A stretch of DNA of 58,761 nucleotides, from the sequence record SRR2962707_856; one strand, written 5' to 3'. A program made the position numbers and the translations under genes. This document shows positions 1,332 through 57,794 of this stretch, piece by piece. The number at the start of each line of letters is the position of its first letter. Within the stretch, counting starts at the first letter, position 1. The notes beneath the pieces are model-generated. The model made no database searches. It saw only the letters and a program-made list of their open reading frames with translations, and was not told where the DNA came from.

Positions 1332-2057
1332 TTAGGCGGCAACCCTGGGACGAAGTATCTTTAGACGATTCTCGTTAGCCGCGACTGGAACTCGACGCCA
1401 CGTTTTTCCGGTTAGCGCGAATACCACTGTGTTGTAGGACACCCCGTACCGGTCAGCCAGTCGATGCAGTGGCTCATCGGATGTGCGAATATCAATCACC
1501 GCCGCCTCTGTAAGCTTGGCACAGTAGTGCGCCTCTCCGGCTATCCTGTCTCCGGGCTGTACATTAAAAATCTCGCCGGTAACGGGTAGCCATGACCACT
1601 CTTTAAGAGACTTGATGTTGGAGACGCTGGATAAGCCAATCCCAAAATCAGAGGCAATTTCTTCGTGAGCTCGCTTATCTGACCTTATCTGATGGACCTG
1701 GTCTGTGGTTAATTTGGTATGCGGCAGGGATGCACCCTTGGCCTGCCTGCCTTTTGATACGCAGTCCTCCATATTTTCTTTGCGAGTACCTGCGAAAAGG
1801 TGGAGTGGGTCGACGCATTTGCGGTTATCGCAACGGTGGCAAACCTCCATCCCGTCCGGTATCGGTATGTCCAGCACATGCTGGAAAGAAAATCTATGGG
1901 CAAGCATTCTGTGCTTTACCCGATCCCGCTTCATCTCGATTACGCCGTAGCCGCCAGACTGAATATAGCCCTGCCATTCAAGACAACCATTCAAGGCGCG
2001 TTTGGTTTTCGCCTGAAAGCGCTTCGTCATTTCAGGGATAGGTGCATCTGGGCTCAT
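1332..2057 (-). CDS. HNH endonuclease with repeated C-terminal DNA-binding units
   Basis: CLEWQG...AHRFSF...VCHRCDNRKCVDPLHL...N; two KLT..V..IR repeats; ends AANENRLKILRPRVAA. Confidence 0.85.
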   Translation of the reverse strand: MSPDAPIPEMTKRFQAKTKRALNGCLEWQGYIQSGGYGVIEMKRDRVKHRMLAHRFSFQHVLDIPIPDGMEVCHRCDNRKCVDPLHLFAGTRKENMEDCVSKGRQAKGASLPHTKLTTDQVHQIRSDKRAHEEIASDFGIGLSSVSNIKSLKEWSWLPVTGEIFNVQPGDRIAGEAHYCAKLTEAAVIDIRTSDEPLHRLADRYGVSYNTVVFALTGKTWRRVPVAANENRLKILRPRVAA

Positions 2058-2485
2058 TCCCTCACCTTCAATCGCTCTATCGCCTCGCTGGCCGACGCAC
2101 ATTTCGGCCGATCGTCGATCAAAGAACCACTAGCCTTGGCATCCATAAGAATAGCCATGCAGGCTCGCACGTGAGCTAGGTGTGACGCACCACTTTCCGG
2201 GTCTGTGTCCTCACCAGAGAACCAGGACAAAAGGTGACGCATAGCCGCGCTGTAGTAAGTGGTGGCGTCGACAGGGTCGTCCTGCCAGTTATACGGCCCG
2301 TACTTTGCAGCGCCCAAGGCCATCACTACGCTTTCTTCGATAATGGCGATGGGCGGGATAAACTGCGGGCTAGGCTTGCGCACGCCGAATGCCCGCTTGG
2401 GATTGCTTGATGGCGCGTTGTCATTGGCTGCCGACCGTGTGAGCGTAATGTCACCGGCCTGTCTTGCGTGTTCCGAGTTCATCAC
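2054..2485 (-). CDS. DUF5664-like (dATP/dGTP diphosphohydrolase N-terminal-like) protein
   Basis: VMALGAAKYGPYNW...YYSAAMRHLLSWFSGEDTDPESGASHLAH. Confidence 0.8.
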   Translation of the reverse strand: MMNSEHARQAGDITLTRSAANDNAPSSNPKRAFGVRKPSPQFIPPIAIIEESVVMALGAAKYGPYNWQDDPVDATTYYSAAMRHLLSWFSGEDTDPESGASHLAHVRACMAILMDAKASGSLIDDRPKCASASEAIERLKVRE

Positions 2486-3228
2486 TCCTCCCCATATAAC
2501 TCAGAAAACAGCGCCAGGAACTCAGCCTTGGCGCGCTCCGGCGGCCAGAACTGCAAAACAACACCCAACCGAACGCCGGTCAGGCCCCACTCCTTTTCAC
2601 TGGGCGCCATGTTCTGCTGCCGTTCGTCGTGCAGGATCCGAGCGTCCGCATCGTGCACAGCATCGTGCAGCGTGGTTTCGAGCCCGTACCGTTCGCACAC
2701 CGCCTCAAAGGCCGTGGCTTCGGCCTGCCGATACCCGCCAAGGAATGGCTTCACAGGACGCGGCACGTCGGTCAGGTAGGCTTCACAGGCGTCGTGCAGC
2801 AGCCCTTCCAGCGCAATCGCGTCGCTGTGCTTTTGGCGTAGGTGGCGTGCGATAAGCACGCAATGTTCTGCCACTGAGTAAAACCGCAGCGAGTGCCCGT
2901 TGTACCGGCACTGCATGGACAAGCTATGCGCAATGTCCTCGATGCAGATGTCTTCTGGCCGCAGGTCCATTGGGAACACTGCGCGGCCGGAGTAGGTCTG
3001 CATGAACGAACCGATGCGGGGCTGTGGCGGCAAGCGGGGGTCGTCCACCTGCTCCACGACTTCCCGCGCCACCTCGTCGACCAATTCACGCGTCACGTTG
3101 TCATTGGCCAACTTCGTGTTGCCATAGACGAAGCTGCGGCGCTGCTCTTCCTCCTGCTCCGGGGTCATGGGCTTGTGGTTGTCGAGCATGTATTGCAGGG
3201 CGTCTTCGGAAAGCATGTCCATGCTCAT
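2482..3228 (-). CDS. HD-family phosphohydrolase (YfbR/5'-deoxynucleotidase-like)
   Basis: IEDIAHSLSMQCRYNGH...YSVAEHC...LLHDACEAYLTDVPRPVK; ATGA-coupled start. Confidence 0.85.
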   Translation of the reverse strand: MSMDMLSEDALQYMLDNHKPMTPEQEEEQRRSFVYGNTKLANDNVTRELVDEVAREVVEQVDDPRLPPQPRIGSFMQTYSGRAVFPMDLRPEDICIEDIAHSLSMQCRYNGHSLRFYSVAEHCVLIARHLRQKHSDAIALEGLLHDACEAYLTDVPRPVKPFLGGYRQAEATAFEAVCERYGLETTLHDAVHDADARILHDERQQNMAPSEKEWGLTGVRLGVVLQFWPPERAKAEFLALFSELYGEE

Positions 3229-3587
3229 ACCCCCTCCTCCAGCGCGTCGGCCAGTTCGATGAACGTGGCGGCTGCAGCGCGGAGAGACGCCGCGTTCGCG
3301 TACCGCTTGTACTCGATCTCGAAACCGGAGAACGGGATCGGCGTGACAGTCACGTCGCCATACTTCCCCGGCACGATTTCCTTGCGCGTGACGGTGCGGA
3401 CGGGGCTGGCGCACTGGACTAGGCGAAAGCGTTCTGGCCTATAACTCTGCTTCGCCGACTCGATGTAGATCCACTCGCCTTCGTCCACATCTTGCGTCAA
3501 TGTGTGCCTTTCGCCGTTCTTGATGCTGAAATCTTCGCCAGCATTTACGACTTCGACAACATCTCCGGCCTTAAACTGTCTTCCCAT
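3225..3587 (-). CDS. Hypothetical protein
   Basis: Strong GAGGAG SD; FKAGDVVEVV start; coupled to next gene. Confidence 0.7.
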   Translation of the reverse strand: MGRQFKAGDVVEVVNAGEDFSIKNGERHTLTQDVDEGEWIYIESAKQSYRPERFRLVQCASPVRTVTRKEIVPGKYGDVTVTPIPFSGFEIEYKRYANAASLRAAAATFIELADALEEGV

Positions 3588-3631
3588 CTCATATCTCCTC
3601 TGTGGTGGTCGCGGGGTGGTGTCCCGCTGGT

Positions 3632-4135: not shown

Positions 4136-4840
4136 CTAGATTGAAACGATAAGGTCCGGCTGGAACGACTGGTTCTCGCCGGGGTAGCCTCGCGGATTGG
4201 CAAGCACCCGCGTGGTGCCAATCTCGTAATCGAAGTTGTTATGCACGTGACCGTGGATCCACAGCGCCGCACCGCTTTCCGCAACGATGTCGTCCATATC
4301 GCTGTAATAGGCTCGGTTGATTGCAGACCCAGCGAAGCGACTATGGACGCTCTTCGACGACGGCGCGTGGTGGGTGACAACCACGTCAGCCTTGACGCCC
4401 GACAAGAAGGCACGGCTTGCCGCGTGCAATTGCGTCGCATGGCTTGGCAGGAATCGCTGGTATGGGTTCTTGGTCCACTTGATATAGCGATGGTCGTTCA
4501 TAGCCCGACGGGCCAGTTCGGCTGCCGCTGACGAGTGGCCGTAGTCGGTCCAGAGAGTGGACCCTGCGACCGTCACGCCGTCCACGGTAACGGCTGTGTC
4601 GTCGAGAAAGTGCAGTCCGGGGACAGCAGACAGCTTCGCCAGCCGTTCCTGATAATCCCAGCCGTAGAACTCATGGTTTCCAGCAACGAACACGGTTGGC
4701 AGTCTGGCTGCCGTGCGCTCGAGCCAGTCATCGTTCACAGCATCGCCAGCGACAACCGCAATGTCGGCATTGGCGGGTGGCGCAAGCCACTCCCCGCCGT
4801 GGTCGTAGTGCAGGTCAGAAACAATCCAGAGATTGGTCAC
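4136..4840 (-). CDS. Calcineurin-like metallophosphoesterase
   Basis: SDLH, AGD, GNHE, THHAP, HGHVH motifs. Confidence 0.9.
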   Translation of the reverse strand: MTNLWIVSDLHYDHGGEWLAPPANADIAVVAGDAVNDDWLERTAARLPTVFVAGNHEFYGWDYQERLAKLSAVPGLHFLDDTAVTVDGVTVAGSTLWTDYGHSSAAAELARRAMNDHRYIKWTKNPYQRFLPSHATQLHAASRAFLSGVKADVVVTHHAPSSKSVHSRFAGSAINRAYYSDMDDIVAESGAALWIHGHVHNNFDYEIGTTRVLANPRGYPGENQSFQPDLIVSI

Positions 4841-6093
4841 GCCGCCCTCCTCTGCGGTTGATTGTCGTTGGCGGCAACACCATCCAGCATTGCCACGCGC
4901 ACCCGGCCAATCTCACCCATGTTCCGGTGGTAGGAGATGGTTTGCAGCGACCGACCGGACAGGAACCCCGAACCAAAATGCCATGCGTCTTGCGGTATGG
5001 GCGCCTGATGCGACTCCATAATCACACCGCCGCCTTCGGTCGCTGACTTGGACTGGTGGTGCACATGAAATCCATGGGCGTAGCGGAACTGGGTCGCGCC
5101 CCAATCCACGGCCCGACGATGCGCCATGATTGACGGCATGTCTTTCAGCTTGGCTTCGTGTCCATGTGTGGCGGCAAGCATCACCTTGCCGAAGCGGTGA
5201 TAGAAGAAAAGCGACTGGTCAAGGTCAACTTCGACGCGCGGCTCATTGCGATACCAAGCCTTCAGGAACCATGCGATGGCCGGTGCGGTTTCTTCGTCGT
5301 GGTTGCCCTTCAGGTTTCGAACGATGACACGACCGTTCCGTCTCAGGGCCGCATCGACGGTGCGCACCATAAGTGCGCCGGCCGTCTCGACGACCTTTTG
5401 ATGTCGCCCCTCGACGTCGAGTTGGTTGGCAGAGCGCGCCGTCTGGTTCTTGTTGTTGTCGGCATGTGTTAGGTCGCCACCACCCAAAACGATAGCAACC
5501 GCACTGGCAGGACTGCGCGAAATTGCATCCTCAATGCCTTGCCCGATTTGCTGCTCGGCGTGTTTCAAATCCCAGTTCTGGTCGGTCTCGCGCTGCCATG
5601 CGAACATTCCGACGTGCCAGTCATTGCACGGTATAAGCGTGAGCAAGTCGTCGCTTACCGCGGACGGCGACGGCACTGGGGCCGCGCACGGATCGTAATT
5701 CTCGAAACGCTTGGCTAGGATGTCGGCAATGTCGATCGCGCTTGGCGTCTCCCTTGTCTTCACCCACTGCTGGACCAGCCGCCCTTCGGCGTCGACCAGT
5801 GCGGACACACCCTTGACCGCGTGGCCGGTCGGAACTTCAAACGCCTCGCCGTGTTCCTTGACCTGCTTGACCCAGGAGTCGCCTTCCTTCGTGGCGATCG
5901 ACTTGATTGCGAAACCGGGCTTTGTTTCAGCCGGCCCCAGCAGCCCCCGCTCAGCAGCCCGCGCCAGCCGGTTGTTGAACGTGTTTCTCGGCAGCCCCAG
6001 CGTGGCCGCAGCTTCGGTTTTGTTCTCGCCGCATGCGCGGTAGGCCAGTGCGGCCTCTAGGGCGAGGTCGTCTGTCAATGGTGGGGTGGTCAT
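4837..6093 (-). CDS. Metallophosphoesterase-fold protein with N-terminal Fis-like HTH
   Basis: NKTEAAATLGLPRNT; DWH, GGD, GNHD, THGH, HVHH motifs; ends AANDNQPQRRAA. Confidence 0.8.
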   Translation of the reverse strand: MTTPPLTDDLALEAALAYRACGENKTEAAATLGLPRNTFNNRLARAAERGLLGPAETKPGFAIKSIATKEGDSWVKQVKEHGEAFEVPTGHAVKGVSALVDAEGRLVQQWVKTRETPSAIDIADILAKRFENYDPCAAPVPSPSAVSDDLLTLIPCNDWHVGMFAWQRETDQNWDLKHAEQQIGQGIEDAISRSPASAVAIVLGGGDLTHADNNKNQTARSANQLDVEGRHQKVVETAGALMVRTVDAALRRNGRVIVRNLKGNHDEETAPAIAWFLKAWYRNEPRVEVDLDQSLFFYHRFGKVMLAATHGHEAKLKDMPSIMAHRRAVDWGATQFRYAHGFHVHHQSKSATEGGGVIMESHQAPIPQDAWHFGSGFLSGRSLQTISYHRNMGEIGRVRVAMLDGVAANDNQPQRRAA

Positions 6094-6451: not shown

Positions 6452-6813
6452 GGCTTCACCTCTGCGATTAGAGCGCGCAGGAGGGCGGCTAGGATGGCGA
6501 GTGGGATCGTGACGTTGCAACCCTCGCCGGTTACCCGCTTTCCTCCCAGACCGTCTGGCCACCAGTTGATGTGCGCGCCGCACCCTGACGGGTCGACACC
6601 CATTTGAACTCCGCAGACCGGCAGCAACCGCTCCACCAGCCAAAGCGCGTCGTCAACTGACCCAGTCAGTCTTGGGGGCCATGATACAAAGTCGCACGTT
6701 GCGGATGTGTCAAACGCTTTCACAAGGTCGCGGTTGAGTTGCGAGTCAGCCCCCGTCGCCTTCTCAACCCGATCAAGCAGCGCTTGCAGTTCTTCTTTCG
6801 TCGCCATGTTCAC
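6448..6813 (-). CDS. Hypothetical protein
   Basis: Coupled ORF within operon. Confidence 0.7.
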   Translation of the reverse strand: MNMATKEELQALLDRVEKATGADSQLNRDLVKAFDTSATCDFVSWPPRLTGSVDDALWLVERLLPVCGVQMGVDPSGCGAHINWWPDGLGGKRVTGEGCNVTIPLAILAALLRALIAEVKP

Positions 6814-7475
6814 TCCCTCCCCATCAGTTCACAAATCGCTTCACCGCTCACCACCAGCCCGATGCCGGTCAGTTGCGACCCGAACCCAACCGGATACGTC
6901 ATCACGGCCATGGAGATTCCCACGACCTGACCGTCCGCAACGACAGGCCCGCCGCTCATGCCGGGAATGATTGTCATATCGACGGGATAGGCGCCGGGAA
7001 TGCCCAAGGCAGAACCAACCGGCCCGATGACCTGACCAGCGGTGCGCACGAACTCCATGGCAAGCGGGTTGCCGTAGGCTATGACAGGCGTGCCGACCGG
7101 CGGCGTGTCGCAGGATAGCGGCAGGGTCTGCAGGTCTTCTGCTGAGGTAGAGAGCAAAGCCACGTCGTACGTCGTACTGGCCCAAAGCACTTCCGCGCCT
7201 CTGGTGTCGTCCGTAGTCTTGATTGTGGCCGTGTCTTGGGCTTTAACGACGTGTGCCGCGGTCAGGATTAGTCCTCCGCCGATATGCACGCCACTACCGT
7301 GGCCGGTTGCGGTTTCGACTTTGACTGTTGCGGTGATTGTGGGGGTTGGTGGGAAGTGGTGCTGGAGAGACGTGCCGATTAGAGCGACCGCAACCAGCGC
7401 GCAAGTGCTAAGAATACCGGCTACAAAAAAGGCGCCGGGAGCGGTGAGTCTGTGGTCTATGGCTGTCGCGCTCAT
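6810..7475 (-). CDS. Trypsin-like (S1/HtrA-type) serine protease with N-terminal membrane anchor
   Basis: GSGVHI..ILTAAHV (His), DVALL (Asp), PGMSGGPV (Ser). Confidence 0.9.
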   Translation of the reverse strand: MSATAIDHRLTAPGAFFVAGILSTCALVAVALIGTSLQHHFPPTPTITATVKVETATGHGSGVHIGGGLILTAAHVVKAQDTATIKTTDDTRGAEVLWASTTYDVALLSTSAEDLQTLPLSCDTPPVGTPVIAYGNPLAMEFVRTAGQVIGPVGSALGIPGAYPVDMTIIPGMSGGPVVADGQVVGISMAVMTYPVGFGSQLTGIGLVVSGEAICELMGRE

Positions 7476-7570
7476 GGCTGCACACGGTCGGAACCGCCCC
7501 GGATTACAAGGAAGGCGATGACGCTAACCGGAACGCCGATGGCAAGGATCGTTGTGAGGAGCGGGGTCAT
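7472..7570 (-). CDS. Small membrane protein (32 aa)
   Basis: MTPLLTTILAIGVPVSVIAFLVIR...; ATGA overlaps at both ends. Confidence 0.55.
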   Translation of the reverse strand: MTPLLTTILAIGVPVSVIAFLVIRGGSDRVQP

Positions 7571-8757: not shown

Positions 8758-8951
8758 TAGGTTGCCCAGCCGTGTTTCTTGGCCAAGGCGTGCCAGTATT
8801 TCGTCCCGGCGAACACCAGCCCGGACAGCAGCGCGCTAACCTCGTCGACGACCAGCGGATCCTTGAGCATTTCGGTGATGTCGGCGGGTACGGCACGAGC
8901 GGCAAGCCAGCCGGCCAATACGTATAGGAAAAGGCGAGCCCATAAGGTCAT
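8757..8951 (-). CDS. Small holin-like membrane protein
   Basis: Two hydrophobic segments, ends AKKHGWAT; coupled to endolysin. Confidence 0.6.
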   Translation of the reverse strand: MTLWARLFLYVLAGWLAARAVPADITEMLKDPLVVDEVSALLSGLVFAGTKYWHALAKKHGWAT

Positions 8952-9724
8952 GCCGCGTCCCTTTCTTCGTTTTCGTGATTGTCGTTGGCCGGTTCTATGA
9001 CGACCGGCTCGTTGCTTTTCTGACCTTTGATCCGCCGAACCAGCCAGCTTACCGCTGCAATAACCAGCAGCGCGACAATGACGAGCACGCCGGGCTGTAT
9101 GCCCGAAGGCGTAAGCGTGGGCGCTGCGGGCTGTGCGTCAGACTGCGGGGTCTGGTCGACAGTAACGGGCGGTGTCTTGGCGAAGGCGGCTTGTAGTTCC
9201 TTGCTTACGTCGATCTTTTTTGCCGAAGACCAGTCCGGCGACATGTTGGCGCGTACACGCGTGTATTCCGTCATCGTGCCGTTGCTGGACCACTTGCCGT
9301 CGAAGAACAGGTCGCGCTCTAGACCGCGCCGACGCGCTATCTCGTTGGGCTTGGTCCAGTTCATAAAGGCTTGCCGCGCCTTCTCAATCTGGCCCTTGCG
9401 GAAATACTGCACCCAAGTCGCGCGCTTGATGGCGCCAGTGTTCCAATGAAACGAAAGCGCGGCCGCGTACTGGTGTTCGGTTAACGGCACCCCTGCGAAC
9501 GCCTCATCGACCTGTTGTGCGTACCGCTTGAGCGCCCACACGAACACGTTCATGCAGTGCTGCAATGGCGCAGGCTTGCCGATATAGCGCTCGACGCTGT
9601 GGCCGGTGGCGTTGGTCATGCCCACGCACCAGGTCATGACGCCGACCGAGTCCTTGTAAGTCTGGCGCACAAGCGCCTCGTGGGACGCCAGTTCAAGGGC
9701 GGCCCGTGCAGTGAGTGCCATCAC
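8948..9724 (-). CDS. Endolysin (GH24 lysozyme) with C-terminal TM segment
   Basis: HEALVRQTYKDSVGVMTWCVG (E-x8-D-x5-T), AALSFHWNTG, RRRGLERDLF; TM GVLVIVALLVIAAVSWLV. Confidence 0.9.
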   Translation of the reverse strand: MMALTARAALELASHEALVRQTYKDSVGVMTWCVGMTNATGHSVERYIGKPAPLQHCMNVFVWALKRYAQQVDEAFAGVPLTEHQYAAALSFHWNTGAIKRATWVQYFRKGQIEKARQAFMNWTKPNEIARRRGLERDLFFDGKWSSNGTMTEYTRVRANMSPDWSSAKKIDVSKELQAAFAKTPPVTVDQTPQSDAQPAAPTLTPSGIQPGVLVIVALLVIAAVSWLVRRIKGQKSNEPVVIEPANDNHENEERDAA

Positions 9725-9871: not shown

Positions 9872-10645
9872 ATGGGCTTCGCAGAGAGGACCTATGGCCA
9901 AATGAATTATGTGCCCCGCGCTTTCGTGGAAAAGACGAAGACGAAGAAATTCAGATACGGCCACTTATTCCCGGCGCTCAAAAGCCTCACGACTGCCTTC
10001 GATCTCCCAGTTCGTCGTGTGCTATCTTATGGTTGCGCGACAGGCGCCGAGTGCTTGACGCTGGCCGAGCTATTTCCAGAAGCGCAAATCTTCGGAACAG
10101 ACGTGCTGCCCGAAATGGTCGCCGAGGCAAAACAGAGGTGCGAAAAACACCCCCGTATCACCATCCTTCCATACGATGAGTTTTGGAGCGGCAGGGCCGG
10201 CAGTTTCGACATTCTTACGTGCATGTCCGTGCTGATCGAATACCCGTACAAACATGTCTCGCGAGAGGAATGGGCACTACGAGAGGAAGCCCCCGAGCTT
10301 TGGCCGGAAGTGGAATCTCGATACCTCACCGCGACCAAGCAAGCGATGCCATTCTCTGAATTTGAAATGACAATTTCGGCGCTTGATCGGCACGTGGCAC
10401 CCGGCGGGGTTTTCGTGCTGTTCAATGCAAACTATCGCCTGACGGACACGAAGCCCGGCGCGGGCTATCAGCCAATACTTTGGCCCAACGGAAACATAGA
10501 GACCTTCCCGATGATGACCCCGAGCGGGCAACCGATTCACCGGGATCACACCGAAGTTGTTTTCAGAAAGTTTCCTAGAGGCTGGAAATCCAGCAATCTG
10601 TGGATACGCGGTCTGTTCCATCGTGGGAATCGTACCAAGCGATGA
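9872..10645 (+). CDS. Class I SAM-dependent methyltransferase (moron); start uncertain
   Basis: RVLSYGCATGAE...IFGTDV, FDILTCMSVL, VAPGGVFVL; opposite strand to late operon. Confidence 0.8.
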   Translation: MGFAERTYGQMNYVPRAFVEKTKTKKFRYGHLFPALKSLTTAFDLPVRRVLSYGCATGAECLTLAELFPEAQIFGTDVLPEMVAEAKQRCEKHPRITILPYDEFWSGRAGSFDILTCMSVLIEYPYKHVSREEWALREEAPELWPEVESRYLTATKQAMPFSEFEMTISALDRHVAPGGVFVLFNANYRLTDTKPGAGYQPILWPNGNIETFPMMTPSGQPIHRDHTEVVFRKFPRGWKSSNLWIRGLFHRGNRTKR

Positions 10646-11660
10646 GATTGTTTCCCGCGCCATCCCCAACGATCTGCGGATATGCGAACTCGCTCCAGTG
10701 CGCAGCGTTGGTCGGCGTCACCTTAGACACATAGAGCTTCTGGCGCGGTTCCCCGACCAGCCAACCAAGCTCCGGCCGCGTAAAGAACGCCTCAACGCCT
10801 ATCTTTTGGACATATAGGTAACCGTGGCCAGCCTCTCCCCTGGTGCCCCATGCGCAAGCAATCTCGGTGGGGCTGATGCGATACCCGCAAAGCGGGGAGC
10901 TGGCCTCCGGGATCAGGTTTGTCCAGAGAGCGTGGTTTGTGGTGGGCGTTGTCCACGTCAAACCACCATCGCCACTCTTAGAGGCATAGAACTTGTTTTC
11001 GTACCCATCTGCGTAGTTGCGAATGAGGATGACAAGCCGATCGTCATCGACGCGAACCGCGTAGGGTTCGGTAAACTTGGCCGTCCCTGTCGTCATATCC
11101 CAGACGGTCGTGAGGCTTCCCCAATTGACGCCATCGGTTGAGAATAGTACGCCACAAATGGAGCGGCCTGTTGTGCGGTGACGGCCAACAAAGGTCTGCA
11201 TCAGGCCGTTGGAAGTCTCGATTGCAACGCCGAAGGGAACGACAAACTCTACTGGCCACACAGAGAAAAGAGAGCTGATATTGACCGGAGCGCCCCACGT
11301 GCTCCCGCCATCCGTCGATTGACAGTACCATGCGTCTTTATGGATGCCGCTCTCGATGCTCACCCCTGCGTCATAGGTGCGAAAGAACGCCGTTAATGTG
11401 TGGCTATCAGGATCGTAGGCCAAAGCAATGTTGCGGGTGTCGAAGCCCGACGAATGGTCGCAAATGAGGATTTCCGAACCGAAGGTTTCGCCTTTATCGG
11501 TGCTAACCTTGGCGCAAACTTTCCCGTCATTGGAGTAGCCGTGGGTGCTGCCGCGATAATAGGCGACCACAAGATTGCCGTTTTTGTCGAAGAGCGGGTT
11601 GGGATGCGAGTTGTAAGCGACCGCGCCGCCGCCAGTGGCTAAAGCTTTGGGAGGGATCAT
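10575..11660 (-). CDS. BNR/Asp-box beta-propeller, sialidase-like
   Basis: Asp boxes STDKGETF, STDGGSTW, STDGVNW, SGDGGLTW; ATGA-coupled to tail fibre gene. Confidence 0.8.
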   Translation of the reverse strand: MIPPKALATGGGAVAYNSHPNPLFDKNGNLVVAYYRGSTHGYSNDGKVCAKVSTDKGETFGSEILICDHSSGFDTRNIALAYDPDSHTLTAFFRTYDAGVSIESGIHKDAWYCQSTDGGSTWGAPVNISSLFSVWPVEFVVPFGVAIETSNGLMQTFVGRHRTTGRSICGVLFSTDGVNWGSLTTVWDMTTGTAKFTEPYAVRVDDDRLVILIRNYADGYENKFYASKSGDGGLTWTTPTTNHALWTNLIPEASSPLCGYRISPTEIACAWGTRGEAGHGYLYVQKIGVEAFFTRPELGWLVGEPRQKLYVSKVTPTNAAHWSEFAYPQIVGDGAGNNLIAWYDSHDGTDRVSTDCWISSL

Positions 11661-12577
11661 GTGAACCACCGTCCAACACAAACAAACTCGGCGATAACCG
11701 CAGACGAAAGATTTGTGCCTCGGAAGCATTGTATGCCAGCTACGCCGGTCGTCGCGCGGGTGGCGCCGCTATTCCCCGTGACAAAACCGCCAGCGCCCGT
11801 CGCCGTCGCCCTGGGTGTCACCACCAGTCTGTAGATATTGTCTGCAAACTCCGCTGGGAATGTCCAGTCATAGATATTCGTACGGTACATATCCGACAAA
11901 GTGCCTGACCCCGCAAAGTTGCCCGCTCCCATGTTGACGCCAAACCAACAAATCTGCGTTCCGTCAGCAAAGCGGACATATTCTCCGTTCGCGTTGCTGC
12001 CGCTCTCAACAACCCCTCCGTTTTCTCGGAACGCGGCGCGCTGGTAGGACGTGCACCGCCAATTCCCCGATCCCTCAGAAACGAAGGTGGCAACATCGCC
12101 TGCCGCTGTGGAGATATTGGCAGCACCGGGAAGAATAAGGCTTGTGGCGTTATGGGTGAGGGTGACTGCCGCATCGAACTGCAGCATAATGACGGCGCCA
12201 GCTTGAAGCGTCGAGAGCGCCGTGACTGGGCCATCTGTCCCGGTTACGTCGAAATAGTTCCCATCACCGGGGATGGTGAGCGTTGCGCCGCTGGCAATGT
12301 CACTGCCCTTATACCAGCGGTGCTGCATCTTGCCGGACGCAGAGTCGTAAACCCCCTCGACAATCCAGTTCGCGCCGTCATAGCGCTTGAGCACCCAAGG
12401 CGATGCCGAATCGTCAAGCCATGACGCGCCCGCGACAGCATAGTCGGGCGCCGTCGACCCCTTGTGTTGGGACAGAAGGGCGTCAAGGCTGTCATCTACG
12501 CGCCCGGCAAACGTAGTGGGCGGAACGGCCCCGCCGCTATTGTCGCGAGGCACGCCCCAGGTTGTCGGTTGGCTCAT
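11657..12577 (-). CDS. Tail fibre protein
   Basis: SGSNANGEYVRFADGTQICW and WTFPAEF C-terminal fibre motifs; follows tail tip gene. Confidence 0.8.
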   Translation of the reverse strand: MSQPTTWGVPRDNSGGAVPPTTFAGRVDDSLDALLSQHKGSTAPDYAVAGASWLDDSASPWVLKRYDGANWIVEGVYDSASGKMQHRWYKGSDIASGATLTIPGDGNYFDVTGTDGPVTALSTLQAGAVIMLQFDAAVTLTHNATSLILPGAANISTAAGDVATFVSEGSGNWRCTSYQRAAFRENGGVVESGSNANGEYVRFADGTQICWFGVNMGAGNFAGSGTLSDMYRTNIYDWTFPAEFADNIYRLVVTPRATATGAGGFVTGNSGATRATTGVAGIQCFRGTNLSSAVIAEFVCVGRWFT

Positions 12578-16161: not shown

Positions 16162-16163
16162 AC

Positions 16164-16550: not shown

Positions 16551-16553
16551 GGA

Positions 16554-17404: not shown

Positions 17405-17407
17405 TTA

Positions 17408-19852: not shown

Positions 19853-19894
19853 CGTTCTTCTCCAAACGGGATTTTATATTTAGAATTGAAACGG

Positions 19895-22772: not shown

Positions 22773-22789
22773 GCTTTCGCCTTCCGGCG

Positions 22790-39597: not shown

Positions 39598-39725
39598 AAC
39601 GGCCACCAAATCAGTGCGAAAAGCACGACCCATAAGAGGAAAAACACAGACCAGATGACGGCGGCAATTCGTCCCCACACTCTGGTCTCACGCTGGAATT
39701 CTGGTGCAAAATCTGGATCAATCAT
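39594..39725 (-). CDS. Small membrane protein (43 aa)
   Basis: TAATG-coupled; one TM segment. Confidence 0.55.
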   Translation of the reverse strand: MIDPDFAPEFQRETRVWGRIAAVIWSVFFLLWVVLFALIWWPF

Positions 39726-41916: not shown

Positions 41917-42018
41917 GGTGCATCTCTCCTCAAGGTGGCGCACGCAGGTGGTGACTGGGTGCTGTGTGATATAGCGGAGCGCATAAAACGCCCCGCTCTA
42001 TATGCTATAGTATATGCC

Positions 42019-45766: not shown

Positions 45767-45810
45767 AATATAGACATATGCGCATATATGTCAAGCGCAA
45801 AGTGATATGC
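45767..45810 (-). promoter_or_regulatory. Promoter with palindromic operator ATATGCGCATAT
   Basis: CTTGACATATATGCGCATATGT-CTATAT. Confidence 0.8.
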
Positions 45811-46480: not shown

Positions 46481-47436
46481 CAGGTTTCCTCCCCGTCATC
46501 ATTCGCCGCGCCGTCGATCCATTCACGCCCCGACCGCAAGCGGTAAGTGACAGTCTCGTTTTCCTCGTCCGCATCGATTTGCTCGCCTGGTACGAGCCCC
46601 GGCAAAAAGAGATGGCTTGGGCACCCTGCGGCCTGCTCTTGAGCGGAAAGGGGTTTGGACCAGCGACTGCATGACCAAGACCCGCCCGCCTCCGGCGAGC
46701 TAAACAGACACGTCCGACAATTGACGCGCGCGAACGCGCCTTCTTTGCAGACGGTTGCGTGCTGGCACCACTGGCAGGTGAAGTCGTCAACGCCAGACGG
46801 CGGTTCGTTCGCAGCAATGATGCGTTCTGCCTTGGCCAACAACCGCAGAACATAGTCGACGTCTAGCGGCATGCGCTCGGCATAGAGCTCGTCGGTATCC
46901 TTGCAGACCGCCAAATAGATTCCACGTTCGCGACCGCGCAGGTACATGTAGGTTTGAAGCTGGCCGTAGTGGAGCGGTTTGCTTTCCTTGACGCCCTTCT
47001 TTTTCAGGTCGGTGAAACTCTTCAGGTTGTGCGATTTCATTTCGCCGACATGCACGGCAACCGGCGCTTCTGGCAGTCCGGTGATTTCCGAGTCCAGATA
47101 GCCGCGCACATGACCATTCGCAGCCTCGACCATGATTTGCCGCTCTTTGCCGGTGCGCGGATCCGGCTCGTGCGAAACCACCTCGCAGCCAATCATGCGT
47201 AAATTGTCAATCCAGCGCTGCTCGTGGATCTCGCCTGTCTCGAAAAGGCGCAGCAGACGCCCGTCGGGCTTCTCGGTAGGTGATGCCCAACGGAAACTGT
47301 AAAAGAGCTTGCGGCTGCACTCCTCCGCAAGCGTTGAGACAGAGATGGAGCGCCCGTCGCGGGGTTGGTTTTGTTCTTCGTACGCGCGATAGATGGCCGC
47401 GACGGTGGCGGGTTGGGGCTTGGGGAGTGCCACCAT
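46480..47436 (-). CDS. Cas4-like PD-(D/E)XK exonuclease
   Basis: ECSRKLFY, G..HE, GYLD, EMKS, HYGQLQTYM, CQWCQHATVC. Confidence 0.8.
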   Translation of the reverse strand: MVALPKPQPATVAAIYRAYEEQNQPRDGRSISVSTLAEECSRKLFYSFRWASPTEKPDGRLLRLFETGEIHEQRWIDNLRMIGCEVVSHEPDPRTGKERQIMVEAANGHVRGYLDSEITGLPEAPVAVHVGEMKSHNLKSFTDLKKKGVKESKPLHYGQLQTYMYLRGRERGIYLAVCKDTDELYAERMPLDVDYVLRLLAKAERIIAANEPPSGVDDFTCQWCQHATVCKEGAFARVNCRTCLFSSPEAGGSWSCSRWSKPLSAQEQAAGCPSHLFLPGLVPGEQIDADEENETVTYRLRSGREWIDGAANDDGEET

Positions 47437-47968: not shown

Positions 47969-48276
47969 CCCTCCTCCGCCACAGCTTGCGCCGTGGCGTT
48001 ATTGAGGAATGTGGCGTGGTGGTACGCTGATTGGCTGGCCTCGACACTTGCCCACTTAGGAAAGAACTCACGCTCGAGCGTTGTCACAGCATCAGCCAAA
48101 TCGCCCCGCTGGATTTGCGAAATGGCAGTGCGCACCTCGTCGTTGTATTGCGTTTCGTGCTCCGCCCTGCGGCTACGCAATTCCTCGACCAGCGTGTCCG
48201 TTGGCACCTCTGGCAAGACCATATCGAAGTCTATATCGACCTCGACCATGCACGATGTTTGGCGACGTCTAGCCAT
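47965..48276 (-). CDS. Hypothetical protein
   Basis: TGATG-coupled ORF. Confidence 0.6.
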   Translation of the reverse strand: MARRRQTSCMVEVDIDFDMVLPEVPTDTLVEELRSRRAEHETQYNDEVRTAISQIQRGDLADAVTTLEREFFPKWASVEASQSAYHHATFLNNATAQAVAEEG

Positions 48277-49367
48277 CACGCCGCCTCCGCTCGACCAGAC
48301 ACCCGCATGGGCATCAACACCCCGCACCAGTCCGGGTTGCCGCCTGTAATGCGCGCTGGCGAGCCGCCATCGCGGATTTCAAACGTCACCTTGTCGCCTT
48401 CTACCGACCCGACCAGTTCGGCCAGATAGCGCGCGTTGTAGCCAATCTCGAAAGGTTCGCCGTCATAGTCGGCCACGATTTCGTCGTCAGCTTGTCCTTC
48501 CTCGCCCGTGACGGAAAGCACAACCTGGCCCGGCGCAACTTCCAGGCGAACCGCTTTGCCGGCACGTTCGGATGCGAACACACCGACGCGGCCAACTGCG
48601 GTTAGCAGCGCCTTGTTTTCGAGCGTGACCAGTTTGTCGTTCTCTTTGGGGATGACGCGCTCATAGTCAGGGAATGAGCCTTCGACCAATTTGGAAACGA
48701 TAGTCGTGTCGCCCTGCACGAAACGGATACGTCCCTCGCCAATATCCACCTGCACGGTGCCTTCTGGAATTAGGCCAACCGTCTTTCGCGGGACGATGAT
48801 GCCCGCTGCCAAGGTAAGCTCCGGCCCGTACACAGCGGCCAGTCGGTGTCCATCGGTTGCCACGGCACGCAAGCGACCGTCGCTGGTTGTGTGGACAAAC
48901 ACGCCGTTGAGATAGAACCGGGTTTCCTCGTTCGACATGGCGAACGTGACTGGCGCGAACAGCGCAGCAAGGTCAATGGTTGCCGTTGTGGTGTAGTCGG
49001 GCTGCTTGAGTTCGGGGAACCCGTCAACTGGTAATGTCGCAACCTTGAACCGGCTGCGCCCCGATTTGACGACAAGGTGCTCTTGTTCCGTAGTCAGCGT
49101 GATTTCGCTCCCCGCTGGCATGCGTTTGGCAATGTCCAGCAACGTGCGCGCTGGCGCGGTCGTGGTTGGCAAGTCGCCGGCGCATGGCGCGGACGTTGTG
49201 ATTTCGATGCCCAGGTCGGTTGCACGCAAGTGCAACTGCCCGTCGGTTGACGACAGTAGGACGTTCGCCAAAATGGGATAGGTGTTGCGAGTCTCGACCG
49301 CCTTGCTTGCCTGCGTTAGCGCGGCAACAAGGTGGGATCGTTCGATGGTCAGGGTGCCGGTGGGCAT
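48276..49367 (-). CDS. dnaN: DNA polymerase III beta sliding clamp homologue
   Basis: PILANVLL, ATDL, EETRFYLNGV, VATDGHRLA, FPDYERVIP, VLMPMR. Confidence 0.93.
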   Translation of the reverse strand: MPTGTLTIERSHLVAALTQASKAVETRNTYPILANVLLSSTDGQLHLRATDLGIEITTSAPCAGDLPTTTAPARTLLDIAKRMPAGSEITLTTEQEHLVVKSGRSRFKVATLPVDGFPELKQPDYTTTATIDLAALFAPVTFAMSNEETRFYLNGVFVHTTSDGRLRAVATDGHRLAAVYGPELTLAAGIIVPRKTVGLIPEGTVQVDIGEGRIRFVQGDTTIVSKLVEGSFPDYERVIPKENDKLVTLENKALLTAVGRVGVFASERAGKAVRLEVAPGQVVLSVTGEEGQADDEIVADYDGEPFEIGYNARYLAELVGSVEGDKVTFEIRDGGSPARITGGNPDWCGVLMPMRVSGRAEAA

Positions 49368-49407
49368 GTGTGTGGGTCTCCTCTGGTGGGTGCAGTGTGG
49401 TGGGCTG

Positions 49408-49701
49408 CTATCGTCCGTGATATTGCCAAAGAACGGCGTTGCAATAAGCATGCACCGCGCCTTCGGTCAGTCCGGTCTTGTGGCAATGCTGCAAGTGGAC
49501 CGGGTGCTTTAGAAAGTTCTTCGGGAAGCGCCGCCAGTTGATTGGCTTTGATGTGACTGCGCGTGGCGCAGGTTCATCAAGTGGGCCGTGGCAGTGCATG
49601 CACTTGCCGCCCTGCTCCTCCATGTACTGCTCGCGAACTTCTCTCCGCTCCGCCCATTCAAGAGCGTCGTAGCGCACCGGCAACTGGTACGGCATGTTCA
49701 T
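49408..49701 (-). CDS. Endonuclease VII-like protein
   Basis: QGGKCMHC...HLQHCHKTGL..GAVHAYCN. Confidence 0.7.
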   Translation of the reverse strand: MNMPYQLPVRYDALEWAERREVREQYMEEQGGKCMHCHGPLDEPAPRAVTSKPINWRRFPKNFLKHPVHLQHCHKTGLTEGAVHAYCNAVLWQYHGR

Positions 49702-49767: not shown

Positions 49768-50358
49768 CTACCCCCAAGGACGTGCCTTCTTGGCACCGCC
49801 AGACTGCGCCGCAGGGCGGTTGTCGTTCGCGGCAGCGCGGTTGTCGTTTGCGGCGGGCTGCTGCTGTGACACGGCGGCACCAGCGTCCACAAACGGCTGC
49901 GGCACTTGGCCGTCCTGGGGGAAATAGTAGCGCTTCACCTCGTTGCTCTGGCGCATGATCTGGTTGCCGTTCGCGTCGAGAAGCGGCACGCCGTCCTTCT
50001 TGGCGGGATACGGCTTGCCGAAACCAACCTTGGCGACGAACGGGCGGAAGTGGAATTCCTCGGTGTTCTCGTAGTCTTCGAGTTCGCACGCCTTGGCCAG
50101 CTTGCCGATATTGCGATTTCCAATGTCCTGAGCCTGCGGCGTGCTGTGCTCGCCCCACTCGCTGATGTAGAAGGTTCTGCCCTCATATTCCTCCGGCGCC
50201 AGAACCGTGCATTTGAACTCTGCCTTCTTGCCGTTACCCTGCTCCTTGTAGTCGGACTCGACGACCTCAAGCCCGTAGATGCCCTCCGGGAGCGGGCTGT
50301 AATCCGATTGGGAAGTGTCGACGTCGTTCACATTGGTTTTCTTGCCAAGACTGGCCAT
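49768..50358 (-). CDS. DUF669-like single-stranded DNA-binding protein
   Basis: YSPLPEGIY...EYEGR...NEVK; follows Sak4-like ATPase; PW C-terminus. Confidence 0.7.
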   Translation of the reverse strand: MASLGKKTNVNDVDTSQSDYSPLPEGIYGLEVVESDYKEQGNGKKAEFKCTVLAPEEYEGRTFYISEWGEHSTPQAQDIGNRNIGKLAKACELEDYENTEEFHFRPFVAKVGFGKPYPAKKDGVPLLDANGNQIMRQSNEVKRYYFPQDGQVPQPFVDAGAAVSQQQPAANDNRAAANDNRPAAQSGGAKKARPWG

Positions 50359-50393: not shown

Positions 50394-51188
50394 TTAGGCA
50401 GCCTTGGCAGACTTCCCATTGTCGTTCGCAGCGCCCGGCAGATATTTGGCCAGTTCGGCGAAGCCCTGACCCTTCTTGTACGGGATGCTATCCGGCAGGC
50501 TGTACCGGTTCTTCGCCACGAAGCCCGCCTTCTCATTGAAGTGCATAAGGCGTTCGTTGCCGCCCTCGGCGTGCGAAACCTTTTTGTTGAACCCGACCTC
50601 TTTTTCCTTGAGCGAGATTCGGTAGTTCACGAACGCGACGACGTCGGCCTGCTCACGGACCATCGCATTGGCGCGCTTGTGCAGCTTCACGGTGTACCGC
50701 GAATATGGATCCGACGTCGGACTGTCGAAGCGAATGATCTCCGGGTGGGCAAGCTGCACCACAAAGATGCCGGCACGAGACATTGCCGAAACAGCCTTCA
50801 GATATTCGTCCCACTCGGCGTCCGCTTCGATGTAGCCTTTGCCGTACCCAGGCTCCTCGATCGACGACACGCCAAGCCGCTGACACGTCGCGGCCCAAAC
50901 AAGGCTTTCGAGCCCGTCCAAACTGTCGACGATCACGGTTTGAAAGTCGTGCTCTTCGGTCAGCAGTTCGCCGAAAATATCGAGCAGGCTATGGAATGAC
51001 TCGATTGTACCGGGCGTCGTCAATTCAACGTCGCTGGGCGGCGTTTCGCCTTCCGTCGGCAGGTAGAGCACCGGGCCGGGGAATTCCGCTGCAAGGCTGG
51101 TTTTGCCGACGCCATCGACGCCGTAAATCACGGTACGCGGCGGGTTGTTGGTCTTGGTGGTGGTAAGGGTGGATAATGATAGGGCCAT
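50394..51188 (-). CDS. AAA_24 / Sak4-like ATPase
   Basis: IYGVDGVGKTSLA, TVIVDSLD, GYGKGY, AKNRY. Confidence 0.88.
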   Translation of the reverse strand: MALSLSTLTTTKTNNPPRTVIYGVDGVGKTSLAAEFPGPVLYLPTEGETPPSDVELTTPGTIESFHSLLDIFGELLTEEHDFQTVIVDSLDGLESLVWAATCQRLGVSSIEEPGYGKGYIEADAEWDEYLKAVSAMSRAGIFVVQLAHPEIIRFDSPTSDPYSRYTVKLHKRANAMVREQADVVAFVNYRISLKEKEVGFNKKVSHAEGGNERLMHFNEKAGFVAKNRYSLPDSIPYKKGQGFAELAKYLPGAANDNGKSAKAA

Positions 51189-51190
51189 GC

Positions 51191-51382
51191 TTAGAATGCT
51201 CCGAACCAGATGCCAAAGCCATGCACAATGCCAATGGGCGCCATGATTGCTCCCGCAATCAAGAAGGCCCAATTAGCGGTCTGCAGGCAGACGATTACGT
51301 GAGTTGCCCATGCCGCGATGCTGGCAATGACAAGTGCGAAAATTGAGAGCGCAAGTGCCGCGCCCGTTAATGGGGTGTCCAT
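51191..51382 (-). CDS. Membrane protein
   Basis: Two TM segments; strong SD. Confidence 0.7.
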   Translation of the reverse strand: MDTPLTGAALALSIFALVIASIAAWATHVIVCLQTANWAFLIAGAIMAPIGIVHGFGIWFGAF

Positions 51383-53549: not shown

Positions 53550-53779
53550 GCCGCCCGCCTTACCGGCACGTCCGCCGGATAGACGTCGCGTTCCTTGAAC
53601 CACTGGCGCGGCGTGCGACCGTCGGGCAGCGTCTGCTCGATCCAGTATTGGTTGCCGGTGGGGCCTTGCTTGCGTTCGATCACGCGGCCCGTCAGCGTGA
53701 CTTCGACGGTTTCGTTGAGGGTGAAGGCGAAGTCTGTAGCGAGCATAGGCACGCTGTTGTCGTTGTCTGCTGTTTTCAC
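53546..53779 (-). CDS. Hypothetical protein
   Basis: GTGA-coupled; begins MKTADNDN, ends RRAA. Confidence 0.65.
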   Translation of the reverse strand: MKTADNDNSVPMLATDFAFTLNETVEVTLTGRVIERKQGPTGNQYWIEQTLPDGRTPRQWFKERDVYPADVPVRRAA

Positions 53780-53937
53780 GCCGCCACCTCGCTAGGCAGG
53801 ACGGCCAGCGCAATATCGGCATAGCGCGCCTTGGTGGATCCGACGTATTCGGTCAGCTTACGCACCGTGCGGTAGGGGCGGCCTGACTTGGTTGCGTGTG
53901 TTGCGGGAGGGGTGTTGTCGTTTGCTGGTGTTCTCAT
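53776..53937 (-). CDS. 53-aa protein, first clear gene of leftward early operon (absent from ORF track)
   Basis: GAGGAG SD; MRTPANDNTPP...LPSEVAA; GTGA overlap with next gene. Confidence 0.75.
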   Translation of the reverse strand: MRTPANDNTPPATHATKSGRPYRTVRKLTEYVGSTKARYADIALAVLPSEVAA

Positions 53938-56521: not shown

Positions 56522-56753
56522 GTGGTGCCCGGACGATATTTGGAAGCGTGCGCAGTATTACTGGCGTCTGGACGGATGCTCAGCGCCAACGCCCAACACC
56601 TACGCCCGCGCCCTCCTCACCGCCCGTCAGCAAGGTCGTGATGAAGGGCTGGAAGAAGCTAAGGCAATAGCGTCGGGTTTCATGGACAAAATCAGTGCGG
56701 AAGACTTCGCCGCCGCCATTCGCGAAAAGATCGGGGAGCATGGGAATGGGTGA
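56511..56753 (+). CDS. Hypothetical protein
   Basis: GGAGGG SD; overlaps neighbours. Confidence 0.6.
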   Translation: MKPEWCPDDIWKRAQYYWRLDGCSAPTPNTYARALLTARQQGRDEGLEEAKAIASGFMDKISAEDFAAAIREKIGEHGNG

Positions 56754-56994
56754 TTGGCGAAACCTCATGAACGAGCCCCACTTTTTCAAAGCGGGCGCTC
56801 GATACCATGTCCTGTCTTGGATGGGGTTCAACCCTAAAGTGCCCCACATGGACGGCACGTCGATAATCGTATGTTCCGAGCCGACATGTGAGTTTAACGG
56901 GCGCGCGGCGCATCAGTTGGAAGAGCAAGGCTATGACATAACGAAGATTCTGCCGTTTGCCGCCGCCCTCCGCAAGTCACAAGGGGAGCGGTGA
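56746..56994 (+). CDS. Hypothetical protein
   Basis: GGAG SD; CSEPTCEFN. Confidence 0.55.
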   Translation: MGDWRNLMNEPHFFKAGARYHVLSWMGFNPKVPHMDGTSIIVCSEPTCEFNGRAAHQLEEQGYDITKILPFAAALRKSQGER

Positions 56995-57128
56995 TGACCG
57001 ACACAGACCCCTACATCGATTTCGACCAGCCTGAAGCTGCGGACAAGTGGACCCGGCCCAACACGCAACCACCCGTCAGGGTGCGGCGCGATAAAGAAAG
57101 GAGGAGGAGACATGCAAGCGGCGAATGA
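56994..57128 (+). CDS. Small hypothetical protein (44 aa)
   Basis: TGATG-coupled; fills the operon gap. Confidence 0.45.
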   Translation: MTDTDPYIDFDQPEAADKWTRPNTQPPVRVRRDKERRRRHASGE

Positions 57129-57489
57129 TAATGGGCGGGATGGATACGTTTACGTCATCACTTCGACAGAACAAAAAGCCTTCAAGGTTGGATACACGTC
57201 GTCAGGCGTCCGCATTCACAACCTGCAGACTGGCAACCCCGCCAAGCTGACTCTTATGCGGCAAATCCCTGCAACAAAGGCAGCCGAGCGAGGCGTGCAT
57301 GCGGCGCTATCGGATTTCATAATTCGTGGCGAATGGTTCACTGACAGCGGCCTCGCTAATTGTCTTGTTGACGACTTGCTGAATGAATTCCATGGGTGCC
57401 AGCAGGACGGTCGAGTTCTCGAAGAATCTGACGCATTTAAAGCCGCAAAAAACGCGGTAAGGTATTTCCGCTTGGGAGTCGCGGCATGA
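57112..57489 (+). CDS. GIY-YIG (T5orf172/MUG113-like) protein
   Basis: GYVYVI...FKVGYT...LQTGNP...RGEWF; begins MQAANDN, ends GVAA. Confidence 0.8.
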   Translation: MQAANDNGRDGYVYVITSTEQKAFKVGYTSSGVRIHNLQTGNPAKLTLMRQIPATKAAERGVHAALSDFIIRGEWFTDSGLANCLVDDLLNEFHGCQQDGRVLEESDAFKAAKNAVRYFRLGVAA

Positions 57490-57794
57490 CCCCAGGCAAC
57501 GATAACAGACCGTTCACACCAGAAACCCTCGCCGATCGGTGGGGGTGTTCTGCGCAACACATACGCGACATTATCCGGGCCGGCGACTTGCCAGCATTTC
57601 GGATTGGTCGCTTAATACGAATCCGCCCTGAAGCCGTGAGAAAATTCGAATGTCCGAGTCCGACCAACGACAACCAGCCTACCGATGCAAGCTATTCCGC
57701 GGATACTGGCACGCCGTCTGGATCGACGAGGCAGGGCGAACGCAACGGCGCTCGCTCCGCACCAAGGATCGTGAAGAGGCCGAGCGCAGCCTAA
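57486..57794 (+). CDS. xis: Excisionase-like HTH protein
   Basis: FTPETLADRWGCSAQHIRDIIRAGDLPAFRIGRLIRI; adjacent to int. Confidence 0.85.
   Translation: MTPGNDNRPFTPETLADRWGCSAQHIRDIIRAGDLPAFRIGRLIRIRPEAVRKFECPSPTNDNQPTDASYSADTGTPSGSTRQGERNGARSAPRIVKRPSAA

Follow-up and report, generated by a model that had tools for sequence, protein, structure and literature searches.

Why should a temperate phage carry one and the same short peptide in protein after protein? The question is raised by a 58,761-base stretch of DNA from sequence record SRR2962707_856 (hereafter, the window), which is a temperate siphovirus-type genome or prophage of Rhizobium-type bacteria with a G+C content of 56 to 61%. 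Its proteins repeatedly contain the tetrapeptide ANDN, mostly preceded by alanine or proline ([A/P]ANDN). A first-pass annotation of the window had proposed that these peptides, together with C-terminal alanine pairs (Ala-Ala, or AA), imitate the ssrA tag of transfer-messenger RNA (tmRNA) and expose the phage proteins to the host adaptor SspB and the protease ClpXP. In the computational follow-up reported here, the sequence match, the host tags, the presence of sspB, and the specificity of the motif supported this proposal at the level of sequence, while its confinement to early, replication, and nuclease proteins did not hold. On balance, we lean toward mimicry of the host ssrA tag, with SspB as the likely reader and ClpXP as the likely effector for complete tails.

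ANDN in the coding frames of the phage

In a six-frame translation of the window, ANDN occurs 21 times, with 20 copies on the − strand and one on the + strand. Each of them is in frame with a called gene or with a 53-amino-acid (aa) open reading frame (ORF), and the non-coding frames hold none. The gene set comprises 85 crudely called genes (18,111 aa), labeled by Pfam domain envelopes and phrog families. These genes contain 20 copies versus 0.14 expected from composition (Poisson, 4e-36), a 140-fold excess, and 2,000 within-protein shuffles never gave more than three. ANDN is the top tetrapeptide of the window both by count and by p-value; the permutations ANND, ADNN, NAND, DNAN, and NNDA occur zero to one time each. 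The first-pass annotation had listed at least 18 exact [A/P]ANDN copies in 15 proteins. The recount gives exactly 18, in the same 15 genes, with 14 of the 18 reading AANDN, and about one window protein in six bears such a head. Variants that it had named are present as well (AANEN, AANDD, PANDD, three DNDN, and TNDN), as is AANNDN, and the translations of the tape measure protein, the 1,195-aa tail protein, TerL, and Int lack ANDN, as it had stated.

The codons that encode the motif vary. Alanine is encoded by GCC (9 copies), GCG (8), GCA (2), or GCT (1), each asparagine by AAC (10) or AAT (10), and aspartate by GAC (15) or GAT (5). This synonymous variation shows that selection is on the peptide, in agreement with the earlier claim that codons vary while the motif tracks the coding strand. 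A DNA-level repeat was considered as the cause of the copies and is ruled out by the freely varying codons.

Related phages share the trait, which is thus not unique to the window phage but common to the 16-3 group. The nearest named relative is Rhizobium phage RHph_X2_25, with 72% nucleotide identity across the head genes, and further named relatives are phages 16-3 and AP-16-3 (TerL, 76%). RHph_X2_25 has 18 ANDN copies, 17 of them [A/P]ANDN, and AA ends in 24 of its 96 proteins; 16-3 has 15 copies, 12 of them [A/P]ANDN, and AA ends in 14 of 89. To these phages, 39 related prophage loci in alphaproteobacteria were added, collected by a TerL search of genomes. Where TerL is at least 70% identical, 20 of 22 prophage loci have two to six copies within 21 kb, and most of these copies lie toward the early side of TerL.

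The comparison with hosts and unrelated phages, which the first-pass annotation had suggested, puts both at background level. ANDN is missing from two host chromosome samples (116,219 aa and 117,789 aa) and from the six frames of lambda, Sinorhizobium phage phi2LM21, and Rhodobacter phage RcapNL; lambda also has no ANDE in six frames. A whole 5.6-Mb Agrobacterium genome contains 37 DNA matches to GCNAAYGAYAAY, versus 21 in the 59-kb window. One of the 37 is in the tmRNA gene, three are in a prophage locus, and 33 lie elsewhere; 15 of these 33 fall in open frames of at least 150 codons, and only one of the 15 is preceded by A or P.

Host tmRNA tags and SspB

Host tmRNA tags were read with ARAGORN, and sspB was sought, in five genomes that carry related prophages. 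The tag is ANDNYAEARLAA in both Shinella fusca and Rhizobium sp., ANDNNARVAVAA in Bosea, ANDNNAKEYALAA in Agrobacterium, and ANDNEALAIAA in Sphingomonas. Counting the tmRNA-borne alanine, all five start with AANDN and end with AA 7 to 9 residues after ANDN. All five genomes also have an sspB gene, which adjoins ssrA in the four Rhizobiales, about 150 to 350 bases from the tmRNA gene. Among solved proteins, the Rhizobium SspB has matches in 2nys (Agrobacterium) and in entries 2qas and 2qaz, which we take to be Caulobacter SspB. An ANDN-type host tag and a host SspB, both called for by the first-pass annotation, are thus found in all five genomes. The Caulobacter tag that it quoted is printed in PMC9393093. 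According to PMC9963277, Escherichia coli SspB binds the tag's first seven residues, and the last four contact ClpX.

The motif probably links its bearers to the host SspB-ClpXP protease, judging from its identity with the tag heads. No tmRNA was found in the window by ARAGORN or Rfam, and every copy sits inside a protein-coding frame. A complex prediction that combined residues 1 to 125 of the Rhizobium SspB with the last 40 residues of the phage AAA_24 ATPase reached 0.31 against a mark of 0.34 and weighs neither way.

Ala-Ala ends and native spacing

Sixteen of the 85 window proteins end in Ala-Ala, versus 11 of 461 and 24 of 423 in the host chromosome samples. The two features travel together: the AA end is present in 9 of 14 called motif proteins and in 7 of 71 others. 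Counted as motif plus AA, motif only, AA only, and neither, the window gives 9/5/7/64 (Fisher p = 3.6e-5), RHph_X2_25 gives 10/7/14/65 (p = 1e-3), and the 39 prophage loci give 26/27/82/982 (p = 3e-14).

Five window proteins, all encoded on the − strand, end in [A/P]ANDN followed by 7, 9, 9, 9, and 7 residues, of which the last two are AA. A 418-aa helix-turn-helix (HTH) protein (gene 4837-6093) has the tail AANDNQPQRRAA-stop at 4837-4875, an apparently full tag mimic with 7 residues after ANDN, and its homologues in RHph_X2_25 and 16-3 bear AANDN at the same place. The others are a lysozyme-family protein (gene 8948-9724) with PANDNHENEERDAA-stop at 8948-8992, 9 residues following ANDN; a NUMOD3/AP2 homing-endonuclease-like protein (gene 30910-31827) with AANDNEIHGCSEAA-stop at 30910-30954; the 267-aa phrog_12600 protein (gene 38875-39678) with PANDNNPDLFEAAA-stop at 38875-38919; and the AAA_24 (Sak4-like) ATPase (gene 50394-51272) with AANDNGKSAKAA-stop at 50394-50432. 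Two further tails on the same strand have a variant form: DNDN plus 7 residues (DNDNAASEVAA-stop, 41128-41163) in a second N6_N4 methylase (gene 41128-41943) and AANEN plus 12 residues (AANENRLKILRPRVAA-stop, 1332-1382) in an HNH endonuclease (gene 1332-2102). Pooled over all loci, an ANDN placed 5 to 10 residues from the C terminus is accompanied by an AA end in 22 of 25 cases. The native spacing of 7 to 9 residues does not apply to N-terminal heads or to heads 14 to 33 residues from the end.

The AAA_24 ATPase shows the same arrangement within a single family. Its 120 closest homologues (67 to 98% identity) consist of a conserved body and then a variable tail. NDN occurs in 57 of the 120 tails, as ANDN in 47 of these, and always 6 to 10 residues from the end (10, 25, 12, 9, and 1 tails at 6, 7, 8, 9, and 10 residues, respectively). 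An AA end follows in 52 of the 57; of the other tails, 39 carry AA without NDN and 24 lack both. The best homologues measure 253 to 265 aa and cover 90% of the 292-aa ORF (50394-51272, −), which places the true start probably about 28 codons downstream of that of the longest ORF.

Taken together, the identity of the head, the excess of AA ends, the association of the two, and the native spacing make mimicry of the tag the best explanation.

Position within proteins

Whether such a peptide is accessible depends on where it lies. Among the 17 [A/P]ANDN sites in called genes, 16 are within 40 aa of a terminus, compared with 36% of all residues. Wherever a domain is defined, the sites are outside its Pfam envelope; this applies to the dGTP diphosphohydrolase-like protein, the HTH protein, the lysozyme, the NUMOD3/AP2 endonuclease, two T5orf172 proteins, an N6_N4 methylase, the helicase, and the AAA_24 ATPase. 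These positions fit the earlier description of the sites as mostly linker-like or terminal and outside folded domains, and the segments that hold the motif may be exposed and unstructured. For the N-terminal copies, the start codon has Shine-Dalgarno support in six of the eight cases examined. Judged against 5,000 random sets, the flanks of the motif are low in hydrophobic residues (27 sets as extreme) and high in proline (132 sets), and their mean hydropathy is not distinct (789 sets).

The virion and packaging block (10575-30523) has no [A/P]ANDN in 6,337 aa, versus 17 copies in the remaining 11,774 aa. Most of the bearers are enzymes that act on DNA or nucleotides. The claim that they are early, replication, and nuclease proteins needs widening, since the endolysin here and the portals of relatives also bear the motif.

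These data bear on an alternative in which the peptide has no function and arises from the composition of linkers, from a repeat at the DNA level, or from the overlap of stop and start codons. The somewhat proline-rich flanks would suit it, as would the ATGA or GTGA overlap with the following gene that comes after 8 of the 16 AA ends. However, the other eight lack an overlap and all four alanine codons are used, which shows that gene overlap is not the cause of the alanines; translational coupling as their source is ruled out on the same count. Nor would a by-product explain a 140-fold excess of one tetrapeptide with hardly any permutations and free codons, its retention and repeated gain across divergent homologues, or its frequency in public viral contigs relative to a scrambled control (below). 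We consider an absence of function extremely improbable.

Homologues and public viral contigs

Alignment of orthologues, a check that the first-pass annotation had called for, showed a lineage-specific trait, with the motif coming and going among homologues. The portal protein of 16-3 and other relatives has an xANDN...AA terminus behind its Phage_portal domain, and the window portal has only PDNDN. A PDNDN variant also occurs in the linker of the window's primase-polymerase, where 8 of 12 homologues have xANDN. In the family of the dGTPase-like protein, 29 of 120 homologues have ANDN within the first 60 residues, in a variable N-terminal extension, and 52 have an AA end. Alignments of distantly related portal subfamilies, primase-polymerase linkers (8 of 12), and N-terminal extensions suggest that the motif was gained repeatedly.

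In the IMG/VR database, at least 120 stretches code for AANDN-x7-AA-stop, versus five for the scrambled control AANND-x7-AA-stop. Among the first 80 matches listed, about half sit in short frames of contigs low in G+C. In 15 of 45 loci of this kind, ARAGORN calls a tmRNA gene; these are real tmRNA genes rather than mimics. On low-G+C viral contigs such as L110, L117, L123, L125, L127, and L161, the tmRNA tags start with (A)ANDN and end with AA, and several of these genes lie inside large tRNA arrays. A called protein of at least 70 aa has the AANDN-x7-AA-stop end in 46 of the 120 loci read, on contigs with 52 to 73% G+C. About a dozen of the 46 share zero or one gene with the 16-3 group. For the high-G+C contigs, similarity to named phages is uninformative on the host. 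No description of the motif in phages was found in the literature searched or by a term search of the main text of the AP-16-3 genome paper (PMC10460002).

Evidence against the mimicry and other possible readers

Several observations weigh against tag mimicry read by SspB. The first is phylogenetic. The trait is specific to the phage lineage: Sinorhizobium phage phi2LM21 lacks copies, and 15 loci whose TerL is 51 to 55% identical, in Sphingomonas and other genera, have zero or one copy, although both sspB and the same tag head are present in a Sphingomonas genome. The host itself neither uses nor avoids ANDN, with about 15 in-frame copies versus about 10 to 11 expected when scaled to one Agrobacterium genome. 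Mimicry of the corresponding tags of other bacteria is not evident either, as E. coli-type (AANDENY) and Pseudomonas-type (AANDDNY) heads occur in only 8 and 26 IMG/VR stretches; apart from one likely tmRNA, most of these sites are internal to proteins of a few conserved families, and they give no sign of gamma-type mimicry.

The second group of observations concerns the peptide. The residue after ANDN is rarely aromatic (F in 6 and Y in 3 of 117 contexts), and R, Q, T, and A are the most frequent; in native tags, Y, N, F, or E stands right after ANDN. If SspB-alpha needs that residue, the phage copies would be expected to bind weakly. Five of the 14 called motif proteins lack AA, including the helicase, the SSB-like protein, and the dGTPase-like protein, and in the first two the C terminus is a different conserved tip (EDIIPF and RPWG, respectively). 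Within the dGTPase-like family, presence of the N-terminal head is not associated with an AA end (14/16/38/52, p = 0.41). Among the bearers in relatives is a virion protein, the portal, and the trypsin-like protease of 16-3 has a C-terminal extension that contains TANDN and ends in AA.

One way to account for these points is that ANDN docks its bearers on another hub, a phage-lineage or host protein such as a replication or assembly center, and resembles the tag by coincidence. The trait follows the phage lineage and not the host (none in phi2LM21 and RcapNL; zero or one copy in the TerL 51 to 55% prophages), and this restriction would fit a reader encoded by the lineage. The three full phage genomes (window, RHph_X2_25, and 16-3) have a core in common that consists of clamp, SSB-like protein, Sak4-like ATPase, and helicase, most bearers act on DNA or nucleotides, and these phages have further short terminal motifs, of the DLF type and with a VPF/IPF tip. 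On the other hand, a coincidental likeness leaves unexplained the identity with the first five residues of the tag, the AA excess and its association with the motif, and the native spacing of 6 to 10 residues. A candidate reader is also missing: a search of the window, RHph_X2_25, and 16-3 turned up neither an SspB homologue nor a ClpX-binding tail motif. The three do have in common a trypsin-like protease (window, 6810-7475, −; RHph_X2_25, 6842-7489; 16-3, 21528-22523), which carries an N-terminal membrane or signal segment and is for that reason an unlikely cytoplasmic reader of the motif. Moreover, the dozen or so IMG/VR tail loci that share almost no genes with the lineage argue against a lineage-bound hub. 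We regard another reader as unlikely; what weight it keeps derives mainly from the lineage specificity, the many heads without AA, and the position after ANDN that departs from native tags.

The heads without AA lend themselves to a different use of the same reader, in which the phage proteins act as a sponge that occupies SspB and ClpXP, blocking the clearance of tagged or other host substrates or protecting phage proteins. Such heads are common (5 of 14 motif proteins of the window, 27 of 53 of the prophage loci), the SSB-like protein carries two in tandem, roughly every sixth protein has a head, and in one family, the dGTPase-like proteins, the N-terminal heads are uncoupled from AA. Still, the tight spacing and the nearly obligatory AA of the C-terminal copies (52 of 57; 22 of 25) point to productive engagement of ClpX, and a sponge would have no need of copies spread over many different enzymes of low abundance. 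A role purely as a sponge therefore appears doubtful, and tag mimicry that would lead to degradation of the proteins with complete tails stays our preferred reading.

Motif-bearing proteins and genome context

The − strand of the window carries, from about 30.5 kb down to 10.6 kb, genes for TerS, TerL, portal, protease, HK97-type capsid, tail proteins, tape measure, and tail fibers, with a lysis and accessory block below about 10.6 kb. A long replication, recombination, and modification block occupies 30.9 to 53.9 kb, and the integrase gene lies at 57650-58660. ARAGORN also calls a 90-nucleotide tRNA-Ala (anticodon tgc at position 37) at 32472-32561 on the − strand, a site at which Rfam has no tRNA hit at gathering score; the call is probably false or marks an aberrant gene.

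Two proteins with complete tails bear a second head near the N terminus: the NUMOD3/AP2 homing-endonuclease-like protein has PANDN at residue 10 (31789-31803, −), with AAGGAG before its start, and the phrog_12600 protein has AANDN at residue 32 of the longest ORF (39574-39588, −), whose start is uncertain. N-terminal heads on the − strand further occur in the dATP/dGTP diphosphohydrolase-like protein (gene 2054-2485; AANDN at residue 20 in an N-terminal extension, 2417-2431; no AA end), in a T5orf172 protein (gene 33475-34065; AANDN at residue 7, 34036-34050; end RRAA), and in the phrog_824 protein (gene 35239-35880; AANDN, 35764-35778; end DSAA). The 53-aa ORF missed by the crude caller (53776-53937) has PANDN at residue 5 (53914-53928, −), and its ATG is preceded by GAGGAG. 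The only + strand copy is AANDN at residues 3 to 7 (57118-57132) of a T5orf172 protein (gene 57112-57489) that ends in GVAA; a homologue search with this small protein returned itself and one relative and no more. A 243-aa protein (gene 32744-33475) bears PANDN at residue 54 (33305-33319, −), has no AA end, and keeps the motif in all three homologues among the loci.

In the C-terminal regions, again on the − strand, AANDN follows the N6_N4 methylase domain of gene 40081-40884 (40150-40164), with the ADLFGGAA end 22 residues on. The ResIII/DEAD helicase (gene 43509-45203) has AANDN in its tail (43611-43625) and an AANNDN variant 14 residues beyond it. The phrog_984 protein (gene 45791-46480) has AANDN 19 residues from the end (45851-45865) and no AA, and the SSB-like protein (gene 49768-50358) has its two tandem AANDN in the tail (49819-49854). 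The Cas4-domain exonuclease (gene 46480-47436) ends in the variant AANDDGEET-stop (46480-46509), and its 16-3 homologue has AANDN here. TerL, which has no ANDN, ends in AAA.

The three ANDN copies not preceded by A or P are probably ordinary ones: LANDN (3108, −), VANDN inside sigma region 4 (3739, −), and SANDN in the capsid N-terminal domain (26338, −). The last lies in the major capsid protein (gene 25100-26395, −) as F-K-S-ANDN-R at residue 20 (26327-26338). At this site, K/R-A-ANDN recurs in 5 of 19 homologues, and the capsid ANDN may be part of the folded N-terminal domain instead of a tag copy.

Other short termini were observed in the same proteins. The helicase ends in an acidic ...GEDIIPF tip (43509-43530, −), which resembles the C-terminal tip of bacterial SSB; its homologues in RHph_X2_25, 16-3, and locus L024 end in DDVPF, DEVPF, and DSVPF, and the tip may be another borrowed docking peptide. 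The methylase ends in ...QPADLFGGAA (40081-40110, −) and the phrog_12600 protein in ...NPDLFEAAA (38875-38900, −), with ADLFG or NLFG in homologues. We take these DLF-type tips to resemble sliding-clamp-binding motifs. Among the phage's own gene products is a DNA polymerase III beta clamp (gene 48276-49451), which ends in AA.

The lysozyme-family protein (8948-9724, −) has a hydrophobic stretch, GVLVIVALLVIAAVSWLV, near its C terminus, followed by RRIKGQK and then by the tag-like tail. Its layout suggests a membrane-anchored endolysin with a cytoplasmic, degron-like end.

Proposed mechanism and implications

In the mechanism that we favor, [A/P]ANDN would be a genome-encoded copy of the adaptor-binding head of the alphaproteobacterial ssrA tag, and the C-terminal Ala-Ala a copy of the part read by ClpX. 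Head and AA at the native distance would form a complete, built-in ssrA-like degron, of which the window has five plus two variants. Host SspB would bind the head and tether the protein to ClpX, whereupon ClpXP could engage the AA end and degrade the protein. Heads at the N terminus or in a tail without AA might still dock on SspB and then either aid the engagement of a weaker degron or just occupy the adaptor. As a net effect, many non-virion enzymes (nucleases, methylases, the helicase, the SSB-like protein, nucleotide hydrolases, and the endolysin) would be short-lived or kept at low levels, and so would the unassembled portal in relatives.

The phage copies have in common with the native alphaproteobacterial tag and its SspB-alpha/ClpXP system the AANDN head, the AA C terminus, and the distance of 7 to 9 residues. 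They differ in origin, because the native tag is added by tmRNA to broken proteins during translation, whereas the phage copies are encoded in the genes of intact proteins. In addition, the middle of the phage tails is free to vary, and the head is also found alone, at N termini, and in linkers. Intact proteins that use this machinery are known. E. coli RseA is a natural non-ssrA client of SspB, and ClpX C-motif 1 is an encoded ssrA-like C-terminal degron. Pseudomonas MucA is another natural non-ssrA client of SspB, as described in PMC13251409. RseA and MucA are single cellular regulators whose SspB sites are not known to copy the tag head, in contrast to the exact head in about 15 proteins and across a lineage seen here. 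What they and the C-motif 1 degrons share with the phage proteins is an AA-type ClpX signal or an SspB-binding stretch of their own on an intact protein. Among phage proteins of replication or transposition, lambda O, Mu transposase, and Mu repressor are handled by host ClpX via terminal signals; they are individual cases with their own signals, and neither an SspB head nor a proteome-wide pattern is known for them.

A broader and rather improbable extension of this mechanism is that lineage-wide mimicry of the host tag serves as a general control layer. Complete tags would keep free nucleases, methylases, the endolysin, and the portal of relatives very low, while heads without AA would titrate SspB and reshape host ClpXP proteolysis. 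Such a layer would limit self-damage in lysogens and perhaps exposure to host defense sensors.

If the mimicry is real, a virus would have copied the protein-destruction label of its host across much of its proteome. SspB would then have many clients besides the products of tmRNA, and the motif would offer a direct handle on how temperate phages set the lifetimes of their proteins. For work in rhizobia and agrobacteria, the tails would also provide a naturally occurring series of SspB/ClpXP degrons that differ in strength. Sinorhizobium meliloti with its phage 16-3, already established in the laboratory, is well suited to the question.

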